Source: Oculatellaceae cyanobacterium bins.114
Lineage (GTDB): Bacteria; Cyanobacteriota; Cyanobacteriia; Elainellales; Elainellaceae
NCBI GenBank assembly: GCA_033764315.1
Contig: JANRJA010000054.1
Span: forward strand, 1-19,112
DNA: 19,112 nucleotides
Reading direction: 5' to 3'
Each line of letters opens with the position of its first letter. Position 1 is the first letter of the stretch. Position numbers and translations under genes: made by a program. The notes under the pieces are model-generated. The model was not told the DNA's origin, made no database searches, and saw nothing but the letters and a program-made list of their open reading frames with translations. Below, piece by piece: positions 9,209-19,092 of this stretch.

Positions 9209-9736
9209 TCAAAGCTTTGTCGTAAATCGTAACCACCGCTGAATTCCCTGATTTAACCCGCGCGAAACGGGTTTGACCGGGTTGAGAGAGTAAGACTCTC
9301 GCCGAGTTGATTTTGCCACGGGTTCAGCTTTGAGGGGAATATCCAAAACAGTGACAAACGCCTGCCCCGAAGCTGCATTGGAGACAGCCGAGGCCGTGGT
9401 GGTTGAGGCCGTGGTGGTCGAGGCAGTGGTGATCGAGGCAGCCACTGTTGGGTCAGCAGGAATAGCCTTGAACAGCTTACTACATACCAGATCGGCAAAT
9501 TCACTGTCAAAGTGATGTTGTGGACGACCATTGAGATACCAATTCAATAAGATGTTATCGACCGAAGCAACCTTATAGCGTCCCTGAAAGATAGCTTCTA
9601 CTACTGCTGCGATCGCCCATTTAGGAGGATATTCCTCTAACCAGCCTTGTACAATCTGCTCAATGTCATATCCACCCAGATCAAAACTGTAGTAGCTCAA
9701 AAGCGCAGAAATAGATGCAGCAGGACTTCTAGACAT
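9209..9736 (-). CDS. Conserved cyanobacterial hypothetical protein, DnaD/DnaB_2-like helical domain (paralogue 1) with low-complexity tail
   Basis: YSFDL...W..EY...W...AVVEAIFQGRYKVASVDNILLNW...G.P..HFD.EFADLVC; 50 of the first 88 residues identical (ungapped, hand count) to the ORF at 12430. The DnaD-like call is inference. Confidence 0.8.
   Translation of the reverse strand: MSRSPAASISALLSYYSFDLGGYDIEQIVQGWLEEYPPKWAIAAVVEAIFQGRYKVASVDNILLNWYLNGRPQHHFDSEFADLVCSKLFKAIPADPTVAASITTASTTTASTTTASAVSNAASGQAFVTVLDIPLKAEPVAKSTRRESYSLNPVKPVSRGLNQGIQRWLRFTTKL
9390..9440. repeat. 15-bp tandem repeat (~3.4 units) encoding ASITT-ASTTT-ASTTT-AS
   Basis: GAGGCCGTGGTGGTT / GAGGCCGTGGTGGTC / GAGGCAGTGGTGATC / GAGGCA. 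Confidence 0.9.
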
Positions 9737-9843
9737 GGCTCTCTAATTGACTAAGTTAACCTTTCAAGATCAAATCGTTGAATAGCTGATTTGCCGTTAC
9801 TTGTCATTTGCAAACAACTCACGACCCATAACCCCTAACTACA

Positions 9844-10422
9844 CTACTCGTCGTACAACATGGCATGGCATTCCGGTGGAGAGTGGGGGCCTGTCAGCGT
9901 AAAAACATCGTAATCACTCTGGTCATAGTTGCGGTCAGGATAGTACAACACGACTGCTGATTCCTCAGGGCGGTTATTGGCGATCGCCATCACGCAATCG
10001 GGATCAAGCAATCGTTTGCGTTCAATATAGGCAATTTCTGGTCCCTCGTTGGTTTCAGTAAACACAACCGCTCCAGGGCCATAGTGTTTATAGCCTTTCC
10101 ACGAGAGTGCCAAAATTTGATCGCAATATCTCGCCACTTTTTGCATGAGATGTTGTGGGGCTGAGCTGGTTGCCGCTTCCTCCACCACAGGAGGGTTGAT
10201 GTCATCAGGCACCCACTCCAGCAAATCGCCTGGTTGACAGTTGAGAGCAGCACAAATTCCATTCAGGCGATCGGGAGCTAAGCGAGGCATTTCATCCACC
10301 TTGCGCAACCGATAAACAGAATTTTCAGTAATGTCTAACGCTTCTGCAAGATCTTTGTTGCGCACCCGGTTGCGTGCCATTACCTCATTGAGCTTCCAGC
10401 GGATCACGTCAAATTGCTGCAT
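9844..10422 (-). CDS. Xre/Cro-C1 family (HTH_26-type) transcriptional regulator with an extra C-terminal domain
   Basis: IRWKLNEVMARNRVRNKDLAEALDITENSVYRLRK...LNGICAALNCQPGDLLEW is a classic HTH_26 pattern; ATG 10422 (alternative TTG 10437); ~100-aa unrecognised C-terminal domain. Confidence 0.9.
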   Translation of the reverse strand: MQQFDVIRWKLNEVMARNRVRNKDLAEALDITENSVYRLRKVDEMPRLAPDRLNGICAALNCQPGDLLEWVPDDINPPVVEEAATSSAPQHLMQKVARYCDQILALSWKGYKHYGPGAVVFTETNEGPEIAYIERKRLLDPDCVMAIANNRPEESAVVLYYPDRNYDQSDYDVFTLTGPHSPPECHAMLYDE

Positions 10423-10464
10423 AGAAGTACGATTCAAGTTTACTATTCTCAGCCTAAAGTAGAT

Positions 10465-10493
10465 ACTCTACGTGAGATGACGATTTTTGTAAA
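10465..10493 (-). promoter_or_regulatory. Predicted sigma70-type promoter of the Xre gene
   Basis: Minus strand TTTACA-N17-TAGAGT; the spacer/-10 overlaps a degenerate operator copy (TCTACGT-gag-ATGACGA, 10467-10483). Confidence 0.6.
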
Positions 10494-10501
10494 TTATAAG
10501 G

Positions 10502-10533
10502 TTGACATTAATCTACGTTAGACGTAGATTAAT
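10502..10533 (+). promoter_or_regulatory. Sigma70-type promoter with overlapping perfect palindromic operator
   Basis: TTGACA (10502-10507)-N17-TAGATT (10525-10530); ATTAATCTACGT-tag-ACGTAGATTAAT (10507-10533) is a perfect 12-bp inverted repeat. Confidence 0.8.
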
Positions 10534-10607
10534 AAACATTAGACAGGCGGTTGGGTTTTCTACATCTGTGCGCCCCTAGCACTGCCTTCTAACTCACCCA
10601 ATATTCA

Positions 10608-11027
10608 ATGGAGTTTTATATGACATCTGCTCAGCCTACTCAGTCTGCGGCTCAAACGCGTGCGTCTGTTGATCTAACCGCGGCAACCCCTAACTCTTCG
10701 GTCTCTGCTGAGGTGACACAACCCCATCCTGGAAATCAAACTCATTTCAAATCGGCGGGAGAAGATCGAGGATCAGGTCGGGTGCAATTGGCGCAACCGA
10801 TTCCTTTATCTAAGTCGTGTCGCTCCAAAATAAAACAGCCTATGGACAATAATTCACTCAGATTGATTGCCATCGGTTCTCGACAAACCTTGATCAACAA
10901 CATGAAAATGCTTCACATGTTGAACTATGCCGAAATTGGAGCTTGGAGCAAACTCCAACGTGGTCCTAATCCTGGAGAGTTTATGAGTGTTTTAACCCTG
11001 CGATCGCCCCATCCCTGGATCTCATAA
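10608..11027 (+). CDS. Hypothetical protein with internal RGSGR motif and a cyanobacterial-type C-terminal domain
   Basis: 139 aa (alternative start 10620); EDRGSGR with RGSGR at 10767-10781; the C-terminal LIAIGS...LHMLNYAEIGAWSKLQRGPNPGEFMSVL resembles a small cyanobacterial family I recall lying divergent from Xre genes. Confidence 0.8.
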   Translation: MEFYMTSAQPTQSAAQTRASVDLTAATPNSSVSAEVTQPHPGNQTHFKSAGEDRGSGRVQLAQPIPLSKSCRSKIKQPMDNNSLRLIAIGSRQTLINNMKMLHMLNYAEIGAWSKLQRGPNPGEFMSVLTLRSPHPWIS

Positions 11028-11071
11028 CCTCAACGTTGATTAAAGTCCTTCAGTTGTGATGGAGCAAAGCA

Positions 11072-11668
11072 GTGCAATTCTTTTCTAACCGCCTTGGCAA
11101 CGTTTCCAATCCACACCAATCCTATGAATATGAGGATGCGTACCAGGATGAGGCCAGGTATGCCAATCACCACAGTCACTATAGCCATGATTACAACGCT
11201 AGCTATGACAATGGCTACAATAACAGGCCAGATGAGCATTACATGGGTGGTTCCTCCTATTCCAATAGACCGCACTATCAATCGGGTGATGCCAATACTT
11301 ATGCCAGGGGCGATTACCCGCCGCGATCGCCCTATCCCAATTCCACTACTCCGACACCGGGCAACCGTAGCTCAGGAGCAGCCAGCAAGTTTACTCACAT
11401 TGCCGAAGCAGGTCATCGAATCACTGAGGTATTGGTCATAGAACCCACTTCCTTTGAAGAAATACCGTCTGTGGTTCAAGCATTACGAGATTACAAATCT
11501 GTAGTGTTAAATCTAGCTGCCATGAGTCCAGACTATACACAACGGGCTATTGACTTTATCACAGGTGGTACTCATGCCATGGATGGAAATTATGAACGCA
11601 TTGGTGAAGGAATTTTTTTGTTCACCCCAAGTTGCGTTCAAGTTAGTACTCAAGCCCACTCCACTTAA
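11072..11668 (+). CDS. sepF: Cell division protein SepF family paralogue
   Basis: C-terminal EVLVIEPTSFEEIPSVVQALRDYKSVVLNL...QRAIDFITGGTHAMDGNYERIGEGIFLFTPSCVQVS is the SepF core; GTG start, short amphipathic N-terminus (MQFFSNRLGNV), long Y/H/N/D/S-rich linker. Confidence 0.88.
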   Translation: MQFFSNRLGNVSNPHQSYEYEDAYQDEARYANHHSHYSHDYNASYDNGYNNRPDEHYMGGSSYSNRPHYQSGDANTYARGDYPPRSPYPNSTTPTPGNRSSGAASKFTHIAEAGHRITEVLVIEPTSFEEIPSVVQALRDYKSVVLNLAAMSPDYTQRAIDFITGGTHAMDGNYERIGEGIFLFTPSCVQVSTQAHST

Positions 11669-11681
11669 GCAACGAATGAAT

Positions 11682-11717
11682 TTAGATCTCCAACTTGAGC
11701 AAAAGCTGGAGATCTAA
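11682..11717 (+). terminator. Stem-loop immediately after sepF (terminator or 3' stabilising hairpin)
   Basis: TTAGATCTCCA (11682-11692) / TGGAGATCTAA (11707-11717), perfect 11-bp arms plus inner CTT/AAG; no long U-tract. Confidence 0.6.
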
Positions 11718-12335
11718 GATAAACACTCTTGAAAGTGCTCTATATCTATCTCCTAACGCTCAAAAAACACGTCTTGATAGGGTGGTGAATCACTGAGATA
11801 TTGCTAAGTTAAAGCATAACTTTTGCAAAGGCATTTTACGCAATACGCTTACATTAAGCAATCAATCAGCATGAATTGCACAAATCAAATTAAGCTTATT
11901 CCATTTAGCAGAGCAAATTACTAACTGAATGGGTAGCTTTTTTCATTGACTCAGTTTTCTTTTTAGCCCCTATAGTAATTATTGCTATCGGAAGCAAAAT
12001 CATCGACTGCTTCTCCAAAAAATAATCAAACTCATTTTTATCAACTAAATTAAAACAGCTCTAGATCACAAAATTAGTTCTATTGTAAAAGACTTTATGC
12101 TGTACCTGTCAGAAGAATTGAAGGTTAATTATTTCACAGCATGAATTAGAGCAGGGTCAAAAAGTCGATTGGAAAGTAAGATGTTTTATGTATAGACACT
12201 TTACAATTTGAGGCAAAATGCGGGGCTGCGAGGAAAGATTCGTCGCTTAAAAATACAGAATGGCAGTACCATAAGTCTCCCCTGTCAAAGTTTTCGTAAC
12301 GGTTTAAACATAGAGTAAACACAACAGATTAGTAT

Positions 12336-12375
12336 GAGGGCTGATCCTCATATGGGGTGTCACCCTCTTTTTTTT
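12336..12375 (+). terminator. Intrinsic-terminator-like hairpin with T8 tract in the leader of the 12430-16903 gene run
   Basis: GAGGG-c-TGA-t-CCTC-atat-GGGG-tg-TCA-CCCTC followed by TTTTTTTT. Confidence 0.5.
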
Positions 12376-12429
12376 AAATAAGGATTTCCGTATTATCTAT
12401 CCACAAGTAAGACTTCATATATTCTCACT

Positions 12430-12762
12430 ATGCGACACAATCCATCTGCATCTACCTCCGTTCTACTAACCCATTACTGTTTTGATTTAGAAGAACAGAC
12501 AACTGAAGAAGTCGTGAGAAACTGGTTAGCTGAATATCCTGCTAAGTGGGTTCTCTCAGCAATTGTTGAAGCACTCTATCAAGGACGCTATAAAGTTGCA
12601 TCGGTTGAAAAAATTCTGTTTCATTGGCGTCTTCGGGGTCAGCCAACAAGCCATTTTGATCGAGAGTTTGCTGACTTGGTCTGTTGTAATTTGTTGCGTA
12701 GGGCACGATTAAGAGCACAGAAAATGAGAGCCAGACAGACCCTTTTAGACGCGATCGCCTAG
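12430..12762 (+). CDS. Conserved cyanobacterial hypothetical protein, DnaD/DnaB_2-like helical domain (paralogue 2)
   Basis: 110 aa; AIVEALYQGRYKVASVEKILFHWRLRGQPTSHFDREFADLVC; ~57% identical to 9209-9736 over 88 aa; basic C-terminal helix. Confidence 0.82.
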   Translation: MRHNPSASTSVLLTHYCFDLEEQTTEEVVRNWLAEYPAKWVLSAIVEALYQGRYKVASVEKILFHWRLRGQPTSHFDREFADLVCCNLLRRARLRAQKMRARQTLLDAIA

Positions 12763-12857
12763 CTTAACTCAAGCTAGCTCAGGCTGCTTCTTTGTTTGCA
12801 CTGTGGTTAGACTCTCTATTGTTTCAATGGACACCGTTTAGTTAATACTTTAATGCC

Positions 12858-13682
12858 ATGTCTACTTGTTCTGTGAGTCCATCTAATGTTGACATCGATA
12901 CCTATTTTGATACGCTGGATTTCGATGTCTATGATTTTGATGTAACAGCTACCTTAATTAAAGCGAGCAATTCTGACTGCAAATTTCGATTACCTGTCCC
13001 TGCCTATCCCGTTACTCATTCCGAAAGCAAAGCACCCCACCGACAACTTGCTTTAGAGCAGGCCGCCTATGAAGTCAGCTTACTCGCTCGACAGTTAGAC
13101 AGCTCACCCTTCATCCTTGAGCCTTTTGAAGACATCTATCGAGTTACAAATCCACACCGGGCTAAATCTCGGTCGGCTCTGCGCCATCTATCTGCTATTG
13201 TTTTAGGGCTGACCGTATCTATCCTCCCGGTGTATGCCTATTACAGTCACTGCTCAACAGCGATGTCGTGTCTCTATGGGGCTAAGCATCAACTGATGGG
13301 AGTGGTTAGCGGCGCGAAGCAGTTTCTCCGTTGGGGCGATCGCCCTCCAACCATGCAGGCACTATCCAACACGATCTCTAGTGCTCAAACACCTGTCCCC
13401 GTTAGTGATCCCTTCAGAGAAGCTGTCAACCAAGCCACACGAGCCGCTGAGCTAACCCAAACAGCAACCCAAGCAGCCGACTGGGAAACAGTCACCAACA
13501 GTTGGTTAGAAGCGATTCGATTGATGAACTTAACACCCTCTACCAATCCTCGATATAGTACAGCTGCACTCAAAGTTGAGGAATATGCCAAGAATCTAGC
13601 CTATGCTCAACGCCGCTTGAGAGAAGCCACTCACCTAACTGAAACCCAGACCACTTCATCTCCAGCCAAGCAGATTGAGTAA
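12858..13682 (+). CDS. Hypothetical single-pass membrane protein with C-terminal alpha-helical domain
   Basis: Hydrophobic segment LSAIVLGLTVSILPVYAYY; C-terminal DPFREAVNQATRAAELTQTA...W...W.EAI.LM...P...PRY..A..KV.EY..NL.YAQ, a pattern common in cyanobacterial hypothetical proteins. Confidence 0.78.
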   Translation: MSTCSVSPSNVDIDTYFDTLDFDVYDFDVTATLIKASNSDCKFRLPVPAYPVTHSESKAPHRQLALEQAAYEVSLLARQLDSSPFILEPFEDIYRVTNPHRAKSRSALRHLSAIVLGLTVSILPVYAYYSHCSTAMSCLYGAKHQLMGVVSGAKQFLRWGDRPPTMQALSNTISSAQTPVPVSDPFREAVNQATRAAELTQTATQAADWETVTNSWLEAIRLMNLTPSTNPRYSTAALKVEEYAKNLAYAQRRLREATHLTETQTTSSPAKQIE

Positions 13683-13710
13683 CACAGGTAGCTAATAAGC
13701 CAGCACATCC

Positions 13711-15825
13711 ATGAAATACCAACGAGCTATGTTATCAGGAGCAGATGTGGTCAAAACACTAGCCTTAAGCATTTTTCAAATGCTGTTTGAGTCTAGTAGC
13801 AGAGTACTCTATCAACTCAACGAATCACTCCAACAAGAAGTATTCAAAGCGTCTAATAAATACAACCAAAACTACTCTGAACGACACGGCACACTCAAGG
13901 TGTTGGGGATGCGAGAGCCAATTCCACTGGAATCGGTGTATATTGCAGTGCAGTTTTTAGACAACAACACGATTCGTCGGTTTGAAACCATCGAAGCGTT
14001 AGAGAATGTCTATCGTCAGGCACAGCAGCGAAGCCTTTATAACGGGGTGGGCAAGCGTAAATCTGGGCTAGAAGTAGCCAATCAAACCCAATATATGATG
14101 GTCTTGGGTGGACCTGGGATGGGGAAGTCTACTTTTTTACGCAAGGTGGGGCTAGAGATCTTGACCCACAATCAACCACCTTGTTTTCAACATGACTGCA
14201 TTCCTGTGTTGATTGAGCTAAAAGAGTTTCGGTTGAGCGACATCAACATTGAGGGGGCGATCGCCAACGAGTTTGAAACCTGCGGATTCCCATATCACCA
14301 AAAATTTACTCGGGCAGCCCTGGAGCAAGGAAAGCTACTCATTTTGTTAGATGGACTGGATGAAGTCCCTGCCGAACGGATGAGTGAAGCCATTGCTAAA
14401 ATTCGCAACTTTGTCGATCGCTATGACAAAAATCGCTTTATCATTTCCTGTCGGATCGCCGCTTATCGGCACAACTTTCGTCGGTTTACCGATGTTGAAA
14501 TTGCAAATTTTGACGATCAACAGATTTATCAGTTTATTCAACATTGGTTTGCTCACGATGCTTACAAAGGGCAAGAGTGTTGGACAAAGTTAGTGAGTAG
14601 TGACTATGCAGCCGCTAAAGAGTTAACCCATACACCGCTCTTATTAACCCTGACCTGTTTGCTCTATCAACGGGCAGGTCAGTTTCCGACTAATCGAGCC
14701 ACCCTCTACGAAAAAGCACTCCGCACTCTGTTAGAAGAGTGGTCTGGAGAGAAAGGGCTTCCTCAAGCCTCTCTGTATCGCGGACTCGATACAAAACGAA
14801 AGGAACTCATGATCTCTAAGATTGCCTATGATGCCTTTCAAAACAATCGTTTCTTTTTGTCTAGACGCGAGCTTGCCAGTCAAATTGAGCATCTGTTGAA
14901 AGAAATGCTGCCAGATGAACCCTTCATTGACGGGTATGCGGTTTTGAAGTCTATCGAAGTTCACCACGGTATTTTGGTAGAACGAGCTGAAGGCATCTAT
15001 TCGTTTTCTCACTTAACACTGCAAGAGTTTTTGACGGCTCAGCACATCATCGACACTCGACAAGATGTTCAAGAGGTGGTGGTGCAACATTTGGTAGATC
15101 ATCACTGGCGAGAGGTGTTTTTGTTATTAGCGGGATTGCAACAAGCTGATGAGTTGCTGGTCATGATGGAGAAACAGGCGACTAGTCTGATTCAGACACC
15201 CAATCTGCGTAACTTGCTAACCTGGGCAGATCAGATCACTACCGGATCTGAAGGAAGCTATAAACCTGTTGTCAAACGGGCGATCGCCATGTTCTTAGCA
15301 CTCGATTTGGCTCAAGCTTTAGCACTGGATCAGGCACGAGTCAGAGCTTTAAATTTGGATATCGATCGCGCTCGTAATCTTGCCCTGGCACTTGACCACA
15401 CCCTGACATTAAATCGGGCACTTGATTTGGCATTGGTGCGGGCACTCGACCTGTCTCGTGCGCTCGATCTAGTCATAGACATTGCCCATAAATTTGAAGA
15501 GATCAAAATTTTTCACCTGGTCAAATTTAATGTGCTAATTGCTTGGCTAGATGCACTAAAAGTTAAAGCTCCCCATTACCAAAAAACGTTGGCATCCCGT
15601 AAAGCATTTATTGAACAAGTTCATCAAACCTGGTTAAATGCACTCAATCTACATCGAGAATGGATCAATTTGTCACGCAGCGAAGTCACAGCCCTCGATC
15701 AATATCTTTTCGCAAATCTGTTAATAGTTCAGTGTAGGCGATCGGCTGTATGGGTTTCACCCCAAACCTGGGAAACGATTGAGGATAAAATCATGCGGGT
15801 TAGTGCAACCTATACTAATCTATAG
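13711..15825 (+). CDS. NACHT-domain STAND NTPase
   Basis: Walker A GGPGMGKST, Walker B LLILLDGLDE, ISCR, TPLLLTL, YSFSHLTLQEFLTA, WREVFLL; C-terminal (R)ALDLA-type repeats and helical domain. Confidence 0.93.
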   Translation: MKYQRAMLSGADVVKTLALSIFQMLFESSSRVLYQLNESLQQEVFKASNKYNQNYSERHGTLKVLGMREPIPLESVYIAVQFLDNNTIRRFETIEALENVYRQAQQRSLYNGVGKRKSGLEVANQTQYMMVLGGPGMGKSTFLRKVGLEILTHNQPPCFQHDCIPVLIELKEFRLSDINIEGAIANEFETCGFPYHQKFTRAALEQGKLLILLDGLDEVPAERMSEAIAKIRNFVDRYDKNRFIISCRIAAYRHNFRRFTDVEIANFDDQQIYQFIQHWFAHDAYKGQECWTKLVSSDYAAAKELTHTPLLLTLTCLLYQRAGQFPTNRATLYEKALRTLLEEWSGEKGLPQASLYRGLDTKRKELMISKIAYDAFQNNRFFLSRRELASQIEHLLKEMLPDEPFIDGYAVLKSIEVHHGILVERAEGIYSFSHLTLQEFLTAQHIIDTRQDVQEVVVQHLVDHHWREVFLLLAGLQQADELLVMMEKQATSLIQTPNLRNLLTWADQITTGSEGSYKPVVKRAIAMFLALDLAQALALDQARVRALNLDIDRARNLALALDHTLTLNRALDLALVRALDLSRALDLVIDIAHKFEEIKIFHLVKFNVLIAWLDALKVKAPHYQKTLASRKAFIEQVHQTWLNALNLHREWINLSRSEVTALDQYLFANLLIVQCRRSAVWVSPQTWETIEDKIMRVSATYTNL

Positions 15826-15912
15826 CAATCTCAAATGGGTTGTAAGAGGCGCATCCCTCAGGTGGTCGCCTCTCACAACTCACCCACCTCACAACTGATT
15901 TAGAACTGCTAT
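15821..15912. mobile_element. ~92-bp MITE-like dispersed repeat between the NACHT gene and hetR
   Basis: Imperfect terminal inverted repeats TATAGCAATCTCAAATGGGTTGTAAG / CTCACAACTGATTTAGAACTGCTAT, internal hairpin AGAGGCG...CGCCTCT; related ends recur at 18974-19092; supplies the NACHT TAG stop. Confidence 0.75.
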
Positions 15913-15946
15913 GTCGTGAGCGTTAAAATGTTTGTTTGTTATTAAA

Positions 15947-16903
15947 ATGTCAGACCAAATTTCGTATTCAAACTCTATATCTGGAAGGAACATCAATCAT
16001 TATACCAATCATGATTTGAAGGCTTTTGAGATCCCTAACTCCTGTGCAACCGATCAGATCTTGATCCGACTAGCAATTAATATCATGCAGGGTGGGGGAC
16101 ATCGCTATGGTGCTTTTTTAGATGCCGCTATGACGGCTGCAAAGTTTGCGATCTATACAACCTATCTCAGTGAAGGAAAAAACTTTCGCAAGACGGGGCT
16201 GTTGCACCACGTTGAACCCAAACGGGTGAAGACCATTGTTCAAGAAGTGGAGTCTGCCTTAACAGAAGGCAAATTGCTCAAAACCCTGGCCTCACAAGAG
16301 CCCTACTACTTAATTTGTCTTCCCCATCTGTGGTTAAAAAAGTATCCCTGGACTCCGGTTCAGCCTCGATTGCCGATGATTGGCTTAACACAGGAAGAAA
16401 AGTTGGAGGTTGAAGCGTCTCTGCCAGATAACTTACCAAACGCCTTGGTCACTACAGAGTTTCAATTTATGGAACTGATTGAACTGCTGCATTTAGAATC
16501 ACAGAAAGATTTACCAGATGCGCATCGCGTTCCCCTCAGCGATGCCCTAATTGAGCATATCAAGTTGCGGTTACTCTACTCTGGTACAGTAGTGCAAGTT
16601 CACTCGCCACGAGGGTTTCCCTTTTATTGTCTGGCACGCACCTCTTATTCTCCTCAAGATGAGCGAGAACGGATCTATACCATGTTTGAGGATGTAGACG
16701 GTTTTTTTCAACTCTTACAGGCTTGGGTTAATAAGGAGCCTGGGGTTTTACGAGGGTTAGAAGTCTTTGAAGTAGAGCTTGAGCGCAAAGACGAAGCCCT
16801 GCAAGAATTGGACAAACTCATTCAAGCCTGGGCCGACAAATATCATCAAGAAGGCGGACAGCCTATGGTTTTGCACTTAGCCGCAGGTACTATTACAAAG
16901 TAG
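15947..16903 (+). CDS. hetR: Divergent HetR-family transcriptional regulator (probable hetR paralogue)
   Basis: GHRYGAFLDAAMTAAK, HHVEPKRVK, EGKLLKTLASQEP, EHIKLRLLYSGTV, ELDKLIQAWADKYHQEGG align collinearly with HetR; ATG 15947 (ORF track TTG 15932); N-terminal extension relative to the 299-aa HetR. Confidence 0.93.
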   Translation: MSDQISYSNSISGRNINHYTNHDLKAFEIPNSCATDQILIRLAINIMQGGGHRYGAFLDAAMTAAKFAIYTTYLSEGKNFRKTGLLHHVEPKRVKTIVQEVESALTEGKLLKTLASQEPYYLICLPHLWLKKYPWTPVQPRLPMIGLTQEEKLEVEASLPDNLPNALVTTEFQFMELIELLHLESQKDLPDAHRVPLSDALIEHIKLRLLYSGTVVQVHSPRGFPFYCLARTSYSPQDERERIYTMFEDVDGFFQLLQAWVNKEPGVLRGLEVFEVELERKDEALQELDKLIQAWADKYHQEGGQPMVLHLAAGTITK

Positions 16904-18973: not shown

Positions 18974-19092
18974 CTTACAACTGATTTAGGACTGCGATAT
19001 AGCAATCCCAAATGGGTTGTGAGAGGCGGACCCCAGGGGGGTGCGCCGCACACAAACCGCCCCAATAACAACAGGTGTTTGGCGGCGCTATA
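18974..19092. mobile_element. Abutting copies of the TATAGCAATC-type MITE-like repeat
   Basis: Right end CTTACAACTGATTTAGGACTGCGATA (18974-18999) joined through a shared TA to a ~95-bp copy TATAGCAATCCCAAATGGGTTGTGAGAGGCG...GTTTGGCGGCGCTATA (18998-19092); same family as 15821-15912. Confidence 0.75.

Follow-up and report, generated by a model that had tools for sequence, protein, structure and literature searches.

A divergent HetR-family protein and a conserved RGSGR-bearing neighbour in an Oculatellaceae cyanobacterium

HetR and the RGSGR peptides that inhibit it are a textbook bacterial system of activator/inhibitor patterning. Additional, divergent copies of HetR have been counted in genome tables and are uncharacterised; in the literature we found them mentioned only in passing. 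One HetR-family protein of this kind is encoded by a hetR-like gene (15947..16903, + strand) on contig JANRJA010000054.1 of Oculatellaceae cyanobacterium bins.114 (assembly GCA_033764315.1), which was analysed over its whole length of 19,112 nucleotides (nt), referred to below as the window. A gene for a protein containing the motif RGSGR lies upstream (10620..11027, + strand). Does such a HetR still respond to RGSGR, and could the protein encoded upstream be its inhibitor? A preliminary description, made from the letters of the sequence, had proposed an RGSGR-insensitive or re-specified HetR. The reading that we prefer, and to which we attach about even weight, is that the gene encodes a functional, divergent, paralogue-type HetR, and that the upstream RGSGR protein would be its likeliest cognate inhibitor, the two constituting a private pair.

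The hetR-like gene and its place in the HetR family

By its domains and its fold, the hetR-like protein belongs to the HetR family. The open reading frame (ORF) begins with ATG and encodes 318 amino acids, the stop codon being included in the coordinates. Pfam recognizes Peptidase_S48 (PF03574, 8.8e-66, residues 73-221) and the HetR_C hood (PF18460, 4e-22, residues 238-314), both over the full length of the model, and a phmmer search against all PDB chains retrieved nothing but HetR (four distinct sequences). Residues 13-314 align without a gap with HetR from Anabaena/Nostoc PCC 7120 (Alr2339; 4HRI/4YRV, E 8.3e-110; hood 4YNL/4LH9) and from Fischerella (3QOD, 1.8e-106; also 4IZZ), and the three-domain architecture is the same. 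In the AlphaFold2 (AF2) monomer model (mean predicted local distance difference test score, pLDDT, 73.6) the hood adopts an alpha-beta-alpha-beta arrangement and the first 23 residues are disordered; Foldseek retrieved at least 500 matches at E<=10, and the ten with E<=0.001 all represent HetR. Compared with Anabaena HetR, the protein has an N-terminal extension of 19 residues, and residue numbers of the window protein equal the Anabaena numbers, which are used below unless stated otherwise, plus 19 (the tagged PDB chain begins M-G-6xHis-M). The gene call in the database (P0003, 280 residues) starts at an internal TTG, a discrepancy that spans 15947-16063; ATG 15947 is the likelier start because the closest relatives carry the same extension. 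Non-synonymous divergence (dN) from the orthologue at locus L001, which stems from a metagenome-assembled genome (MAG) labelled 'Crinalium sp.', is 0.128, and synonymous sites are saturated (proportion of differences, pS, 0.79); hetR-like is therefore a genuine gene under purifying selection.

Within the family the protein stands apart. It scores 383.2 bits against the NCBIfam equivalog NF009718 ('master regulator HetR'), which is below the cutoff of 489, and the NCBI product name for proteins of this kind is 'heterocyst differentiation control protein', not 'master regulator HetR'. A word-indexed search returned 1548 relatives, the best 120 of which were listed. Five are close: the protein from Oscillatoria sp. 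FACHB-1407 (89% identity), two metagenome proteins (85% and 78%), that of the 'Crinalium sp.' MAG (84%) and one at 68%. Beyond these five, identity is at most 64%, and canonical HetRs among the best 120 reach 54-57%. The family as a whole is small, since an exhaustive search of representatives clustered at 50% identity matched only 40 proteins at E<=0.001. A careful, unrooted maximum-likelihood (ML) tree was calculated from 57 rows picked from the collected proteins and loci. The 20 canonical HetRs form a single clade (100/100), in which short inner branches sit on a long stem (0.66). They were drawn from Nostocales, Geitlerinema PCC 7407, Microcoleaceae, Trichocoleus, Phormidesmis, Elainellaceae, Oculatella, Leptolyngbyaceae and others. 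The window protein falls into a separate clade of six rows (100/99) together with FACHB-1407 and L001, and several long-branched non-canonical groups surround this clade. A quick tree of 75 rows is split in the same way. The phylogeny thus agrees with the preliminary description in setting hetR-like apart from canonical HetR, and the window clade is, by its members, a small one found in non-heterocystous, Leptolyngbya/Elainellaceae-like cyanobacteria.

Residues were compared in a MAFFT alignment of 134 HetR-family proteins with 260 residues or more, which remained from 160 after 26 shorter ones had been dropped; P0003, P0122 and P0123 had been set aside before the 160 were counted. On the level of single residues the preliminary description was accurate in every item checked. 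Its estimate of about 66 identities over Anabaena residues 17-116 was matched by a hand count on the phmmer alignment (66), and R62, H69, E71, K73, R74, K76, S179, R223, R250, E253, D270 and D278, which it had listed as retained, are all kept, as are D17 and G36. The changes that it had named (C48F, S130Q, S152E, E254V and D256E) occur in both alignments, so that the loss of E254 holds under formal alignment, and L255F has to be added to them. Against a canonical HetR of 299 residues (P0091), 162 of 299 positions are identical (54%). Identity amounts to 59% for the DNA-binding domain and 58% for the flap and is lowest, at 43%, for the hood, which is thus the most diverged domain. The DNA-contact residues, taken from the list in the report on the Anabaena HetR-DNA structure (PMC4649674), are identical without exception (R81, H88, E90, K92, R93 and K95 in window numbering, equivalent to Anabaena R62, H69, E71, K73, R74 and K76; 16187..16231, + strand).

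The distribution of residues across the 134 proteins puts the changes into perspective. Position 254 is occupied by E in 82, V in 26, A in 10 and T in 9 cases, position 48 by C (92), F (22) or L (16), position 130 by S (80), P (21) and others, and position 152 by S (94), L (13) or E (10), among further residues. R223 (133), E253 (132), D270 (130) and D278 (129) are almost invariant, and these four as well as R250 are kept in all six members of the window clade. D256E is rare (eight of 134) and occurs in five of the six clade members, P0007 having N. At 32 positions at least 95% of the canonical HetRs agree and all six members of the window clade differ; most of the residues found there are also the commonest ones among other non-canonical HetRs (e.g., H35Y, M63K, R198Q, L255F, R274Q), and A232D and R233G, both in the hood helix, are specific to the window clade. 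Valine 254 and phenylalanine 255 are therefore a trait that non-canonical HetRs have in common and not a peculiarity of the window protein, and by the same comparison residues other than Cys at position 48 and other than Ser at positions 130 and 152 are common in such proteins. Where HetR of heterocyst formers has the TSLTS motif with the Pkn22 site S130, the window protein reads IGLTQ. The absence of S130 is to be expected, because TSLTS is conserved in heterocyst formers only (PMC6985446) and the lineage is non-heterocystous.

The RGSGR-bearing protein upstream

The RGSGR protein mentioned in the preliminary description as a neighbour is real. It comprises 135 residues; the motif lies in the disordered N-terminal half, and the C-terminal part forms a small folded domain. 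Although the longest ORF begins at 10608, the second ATG (MTS.., 10620) is where homologues start. The codons for RGSGR (10767..10781, + strand) are the only ones for RG[ST]GR in the window. Of 1000 windows simulated with a Markov model, 6.6% contained at least one RGSGR by chance, and what counts as evidence is the conservation of the motif among orthologues, not its mere occurrence. All nine sequences of the family have RGSGR without variation, in each case after (E/D)-D and within a half of the protein that is otherwise poorly conserved; conservation is high over the C-terminal 55 residues.

Relatives of this protein are few, eight database proteins among 11 candidates. Four of them lie on contigs that have the same lengths as those with members of the window HetR clade, 19112 (the window), 411784 (P0002), 178715 (P0004) and 9041 nt (P0007), and L001 holds both genes. 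On the contigs of this clade, the RGSGR gene is situated 5-6 kb upstream of hetR-like and adjoins sepF. Among 37 sources, that is, 36 fetched loci and the window, ORFs with RG[ST]GR were present solely in the window, L001 and L003. The new point to emerge from these comparisons is a previously undescribed RGSGR family that, as far as its retrieved members go, is restricted to the window HetR clade. Such strict co-occurrence argues for sensitivity of the hetR-like protein to RGSGR and not against it.

In the AF2 model, residues 1-80 have pLDDT values of about 45-55 and are disordered, and residues 82-133 (about 90) fold into a beta-alpha-beta unit. No Pfam or NCBIfam match was obtained at E<=0.001 and no Foldseek match at E<=0.001, and look-alikes in an atlas were unnamed cyanobacterial clusters only, with scores <0.9. 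The protein has the same pentapeptide as PatS, PatX and HetN, and an acidic residue in front of it as in ERGSGR of PatS and HetN (PMC7761841). Unlike HetN it has no reductase domain, there being no Pfam match. It also departs from PatX, for which a signal sequence served as a criterion in a recent survey (Xu et al. 2025, PMC12756182): its motif is internal and followed by a folded domain, its gene does not adjoin hetR, and an N-terminal hydrophobic segment is missing (maximum Kyte-Doolittle value 0.3-0.9 as compared with 2.13 for the PatX-like ORF of L003). Because this segment is missing, the RGSGR protein is probably cytoplasmic and not exported. The definition of PatX that Elhai and Khudyakov put forward in 2018 is said to comprise a Sec-type hydrophobic N-terminus and RG(S/T)GR near the C-terminus.

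We have to consider that hetR-like and the RGSGR protein, the genes of which lie 5.2 kb apart, are functionally unrelated. The RGSGR protein would then belong to a unit with a regulator of the XRE type and sepF, and its target would be canonical HetR or something other than HetR. The RGSGR gene indeed ends 45 nt upstream of sepF for cell division (11072..11668, + strand; Pfam SepF, 6.4e-23), which is syntenic in L001, and diverges from a gene for an XRE-type helix-turn-helix (HTH) regulator (HTH_26, 9844..10437, - strand; Pfam 3.9e-19), the product of which shares 84% of its residues with that of L001. The divergent promoter region shared by the regulator and the RGSGR gene contains a perfect 11-bp palindrome, ATTAATCTACG-N5-CGTAGATTAAT (10507..10533), which is conserved in L001, overlaps a promoter-like TTGACA-17-TAGATT and is probably the operator of the adjacent regulator. 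Moreover, the weak, non-significant fold matches of the C-terminal domain (E about 0.1) include, next to ribosomal proteins, the division protein MinE. On the other side of the balance, the phyletic range of the RGSGR family is that of the window HetR clade, the entire block of 7.7 kb from 9209 to 16903 is syntenic with L001 (233-8960) despite differing flanks, and RGSGR is described in the literature that we searched solely as a HetR inhibitor motif. We therefore regard a lack of any functional relation as unlikely.

The inhibitor pocket and the question of paralogy

The hexapeptide PatS6 pairs with strand beta3 of Anabaena HetR, its two arginines contact E253, D270' and D278', and E254 and D256 hold solely its free N-terminal amino group (Hu et al. 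2015, PMC4649674). That report gives dissociation constants for PatS6 of 12 nM for the wild-type protein, 91 nM for E254A, 427 nM for D256A, 2252 nM for D270A, 1626 nM for D278A and 2353 nM for R223W. HetR E253A and D270A/D278A did not bind the peptide, and DNA release was abolished in these variants as well; E254A and D256A still released DNA upon addition of PatS6. In the window protein, the stretch around strand beta3 reads LRGLEVFEV (window residues 268-276, Anabaena 249-257; 16748..16774, + strand). The core of the pocket, R223, E253, D270 and D278, without which binding or signalling in Anabaena is lost or strongly reduced, is kept, and the clamp for the N-terminus, 254/256, has been replaced by V/E. 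Going by the Anabaena data, the loss of E254 affects the weakest contact of the pocket only, with a cost in affinity of about eightfold for E254A, and D256E retains a carboxylate.

How the preferred pair would operate can be outlined on this basis. The hetR-like protein would be a dimeric transcription factor of the HetR type acting on sites similar to GGG-N5-CCC, and docking of the RGSGR motif on hood strand beta3 would switch it off. E254V, L255F and D256E would touch solely the clamp that in Anabaena grips the free N-terminus of the processed hexapeptide. The ligand would here be an internal motif instead of a processed peptide, namely D-RGSGR on the disordered tail of the protein encoded 5.2 kb upstream, and loss of the clamp would fit such a ligand. 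Together the two proteins would make up a private activator/inhibitor pair beside a canonical HetR/PatX pair.

The preliminary description had drawn the opposite conclusion from the same residues: the changes in the pocket would render the hetR-like protein blind to RGSGR or re-specify it, and the RGSGR protein would silence canonical HetR while hetR-like stays active. We consider this quite unlikely. E254V, L255F and D256E are real, the hood is the domain with the lowest identity, its helix carries the clade-specific A232D and R233G, and the effects measured for E254A and D256A could add up. DNA release by PatS6 nevertheless persists in each of these two single variants. Insensitivity, which had been deduced from E254V and D256E, appears unlikely because only the weakest contact is lost and the carboxylate at position 256 is kept; furthermore, the five residues E253, D270, D278, R223 and R250 are unchanged throughout the clade, V, A or T occupy position 254 in 45 of the 134 family members, and an RGSGR family encountered only with the window HetR clade is what one would expect of a cognate pair. 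An altered affinity or a different preference for flanking residues is possible. As another option, the preliminary description had envisaged action through heterodimers. Judged by the residues retained, the hetR-like protein most likely still binds both DNA and RGSGR.

Whether hetR-like is a paralogue had to be judged from other genomes, the window being the whole of a 19-kb contig. According to rows of Table S3 in the survey by Xu et al. (2025, PMC12756182), Halomicronema hongdechloris C2206 has one sub-cutoff and one canonical HetR, Leptolyngbya ohadii IS1 two and one, and Leptolyngbya sp. 7M one and one, and Leptolyngbya BL0902 has three HetRs in total, two of them sub-cutoff and named 'control protein'. 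All four genomes checked thus hold both types; their canonical 'master regulator HetR' comprises 299-303 residues. The sub-cutoff proteins of these four organisms (300-351 residues) have the same product name as the FACHB-1407 relative, the comparison resting on name and length, not on sequence. 'Three ORFs similar to hetR' have been reported for BL0902 (PMC11298460), and hetR paralogues also occur in Trichodesmium thiebautii (PMC9189399). Canonical HetRs (P0257 and P0222) come from MAGs labelled 'Crinalium sp.' and 'Trichocoleus sp.', names shared with L001 and L002 but not necessarily denoting the same MAGs. A scan of contigs with 8-mer words from hetR-like was blind to second copies, as most canonical HetRs outside Nostocales do not contain these words, and a tblastn search of plasmids gave no match. 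Taken together, the indirect evidence favours a paralogue rather than an orthologue, and the genome probably carries a canonical HetR/PatX pair besides.

The converse, that hetR-like is the sole HetR of a fast-evolving lineage and the genome has no canonical copy, would agree with the small portion of the genome that a single contig represents, with the absence of a canonical HetR of FACHB-1407 from the matches listed (see below) and with 'control protein' rows for Phormidium tenue NIES-30, Nodosilinea sp. E11, Sphaerothrix and Vasconcelosia in Table S3 (PMC12756182), whose genomes may have a canonical copy as well, but is improbable in view of the tight canonical clade, which includes Elainellaceae and Oculatella and excludes the window clade, of the four genomes with both types, of the canonical HetRs under the labels of L001 and L002, and of a layout other than the canonical patX-hetR one, with no patX directly upstream of hetR-like (no ORF with RG[ST]GR in 15826-15946) and no DIF1.

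Several observations weigh against the proposed pair of hetR-like and RGSGR protein. An Elainellaceae HetR used as query gave 1564 matches, 120 of which were listed, and these 120 did not include a canonical HetR of FACHB-1407. Effects of PatX on transcription in Leptolyngbya BL0902 looked largely independent of HetR (PMC11298460). The hood being the most diverged domain, affinity or specificity may well differ. Four genes separate the RGSGR gene from hetR-like, and it appears to be under an XRE-type operator of its own. About 15 of the 36 fetched loci have other non-canonical HetRs and no RG[ST]GR ORF in the fetched flanks (the remainder are mostly canonical and of the Nostocales type); a linked RGSGR gene is evidently dispensable for such paralogues. 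Finally, the window has no site of the HetR type, GAGGGG-N5-CCCCTC with up to two mismatches, and no copy of the DIF1 motif (TCCGGA). Eleven candidate HetR sites, all with three mismatches and compared with 5.2 expected, were rejected.

Neighbouring genes and significance of the proposed pair

From 9209 to 16903 the gene order is orf175 (-), the XRE-type HTH gene (-), the RGSGR gene (+), sepF (+), orf110 (+), orf274 (+), a gene for a NACHT nucleoside triphosphatase (NTPase) (+) and hetR-like (+). The NACHT NTPase with its NCH2 C-terminal domain (13711..15825, + strand; both from Pfam) is encoded directly upstream of hetR-like and shares 85% of its residues with the L001 protein; it contains a stretch of repeats rich in Ala, Leu and Asp, and weakly matches the antiphage EruA model (57 bits, cutoff 1000). 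The genes orf110 (12430-12762, + strand) and orf274 (12858-13682, + strand) are conserved in L001, as is orf175 (9209-9736, - strand), a paralogue of orf110. No Pfam or NCBIfam match was found for these three at E<=0.001; with the threshold relaxed to E<=5, orf110 and orf175 weakly match DnaB_2 (E 0.0078 and 0.0043, respectively), and orf175 also matches CFAP300 (E 0.19). The inverted orf175 and orf110 flank the unit of HTH, RGSGR and sepF genes, with arms of 174 nt that are 71% complementary. In the sepF product a long low-complexity linker rich in Tyr, Asn and Ser connects a short N-terminal segment with the conserved SepF domain. At the other end of the window, a gene for a Ser/Thr protein kinase fused to an AAA_16 ATPase domain (3-1973, - strand) runs off the contig.

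A repeat, about 90 nt long and containing a hairpin (GAGAGGCG...CGCCTCTC), lies at 15821-15912, where it fills the 121-nt spacer in front of hetR-like. A second copy (75-88% identity) is found 3.1 kb downstream, at 18974-19072. In appearance the repeat resembles a small cyanobacterial element of the type of miniature inverted-repeat transposable elements or repetitive extragenic palindromes (MITE/REP). The window furthermore contains 25 copies of HIP1 (GCGATCGC), and scans for Rfam families and tRNAs gave no match in it.

The non-canonical loci examined in Nodosilinea, Halomicronema-like cyanobacteria and the Trichocoleus MAG differ from the window in their gene neighbourhoods and in the absence of an RG[ST]GR gene. 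In two Halomicronema-like loci a gene for a prolyl-oligopeptidase (S9) of 820 residues is located directly upstream of the non-canonical hetR (L022, 7269-9740; L031, 3724-6186). The hetR neighbours in L002, L019 and L026 are genes for an aminotransferase, an iron-containing alcohol dehydrogenase, a DUF2518 protein and an unknown ORF, the latter two being the only ones for which L034 was checked. The RGSGR protein has no sequence relatives outside the window clade.

The comparison with the family carries a corrective for work on HetR in general: E254 is an unreliable marker of inhibitor sensitivity. Going one step beyond the preferred pair, we tentatively suggest, as a possibility that we ourselves rate as doubtful, a second, private HetR circuit in non-heterocystous Leptolyngbya-like cyanobacteria. 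It would consist of a clamp-less paralogue and a non-exported D-RGSGR protein, probably cotranscribed with sepF under an XRE switch. If this is true, the inhibitor would be cell-autonomous, not diffusible, and tied to cell division, and the circuit would illustrate how a pair of activator and inhibitor is duplicated and how the resulting pairs come to be insulated. The pair of hetR-like and RGSGR protein makes it possible to ask whether HetR paralogues respond to RGSGR, how duplicated circuits are insulated and whether HetR is linked to cell division through sepF.

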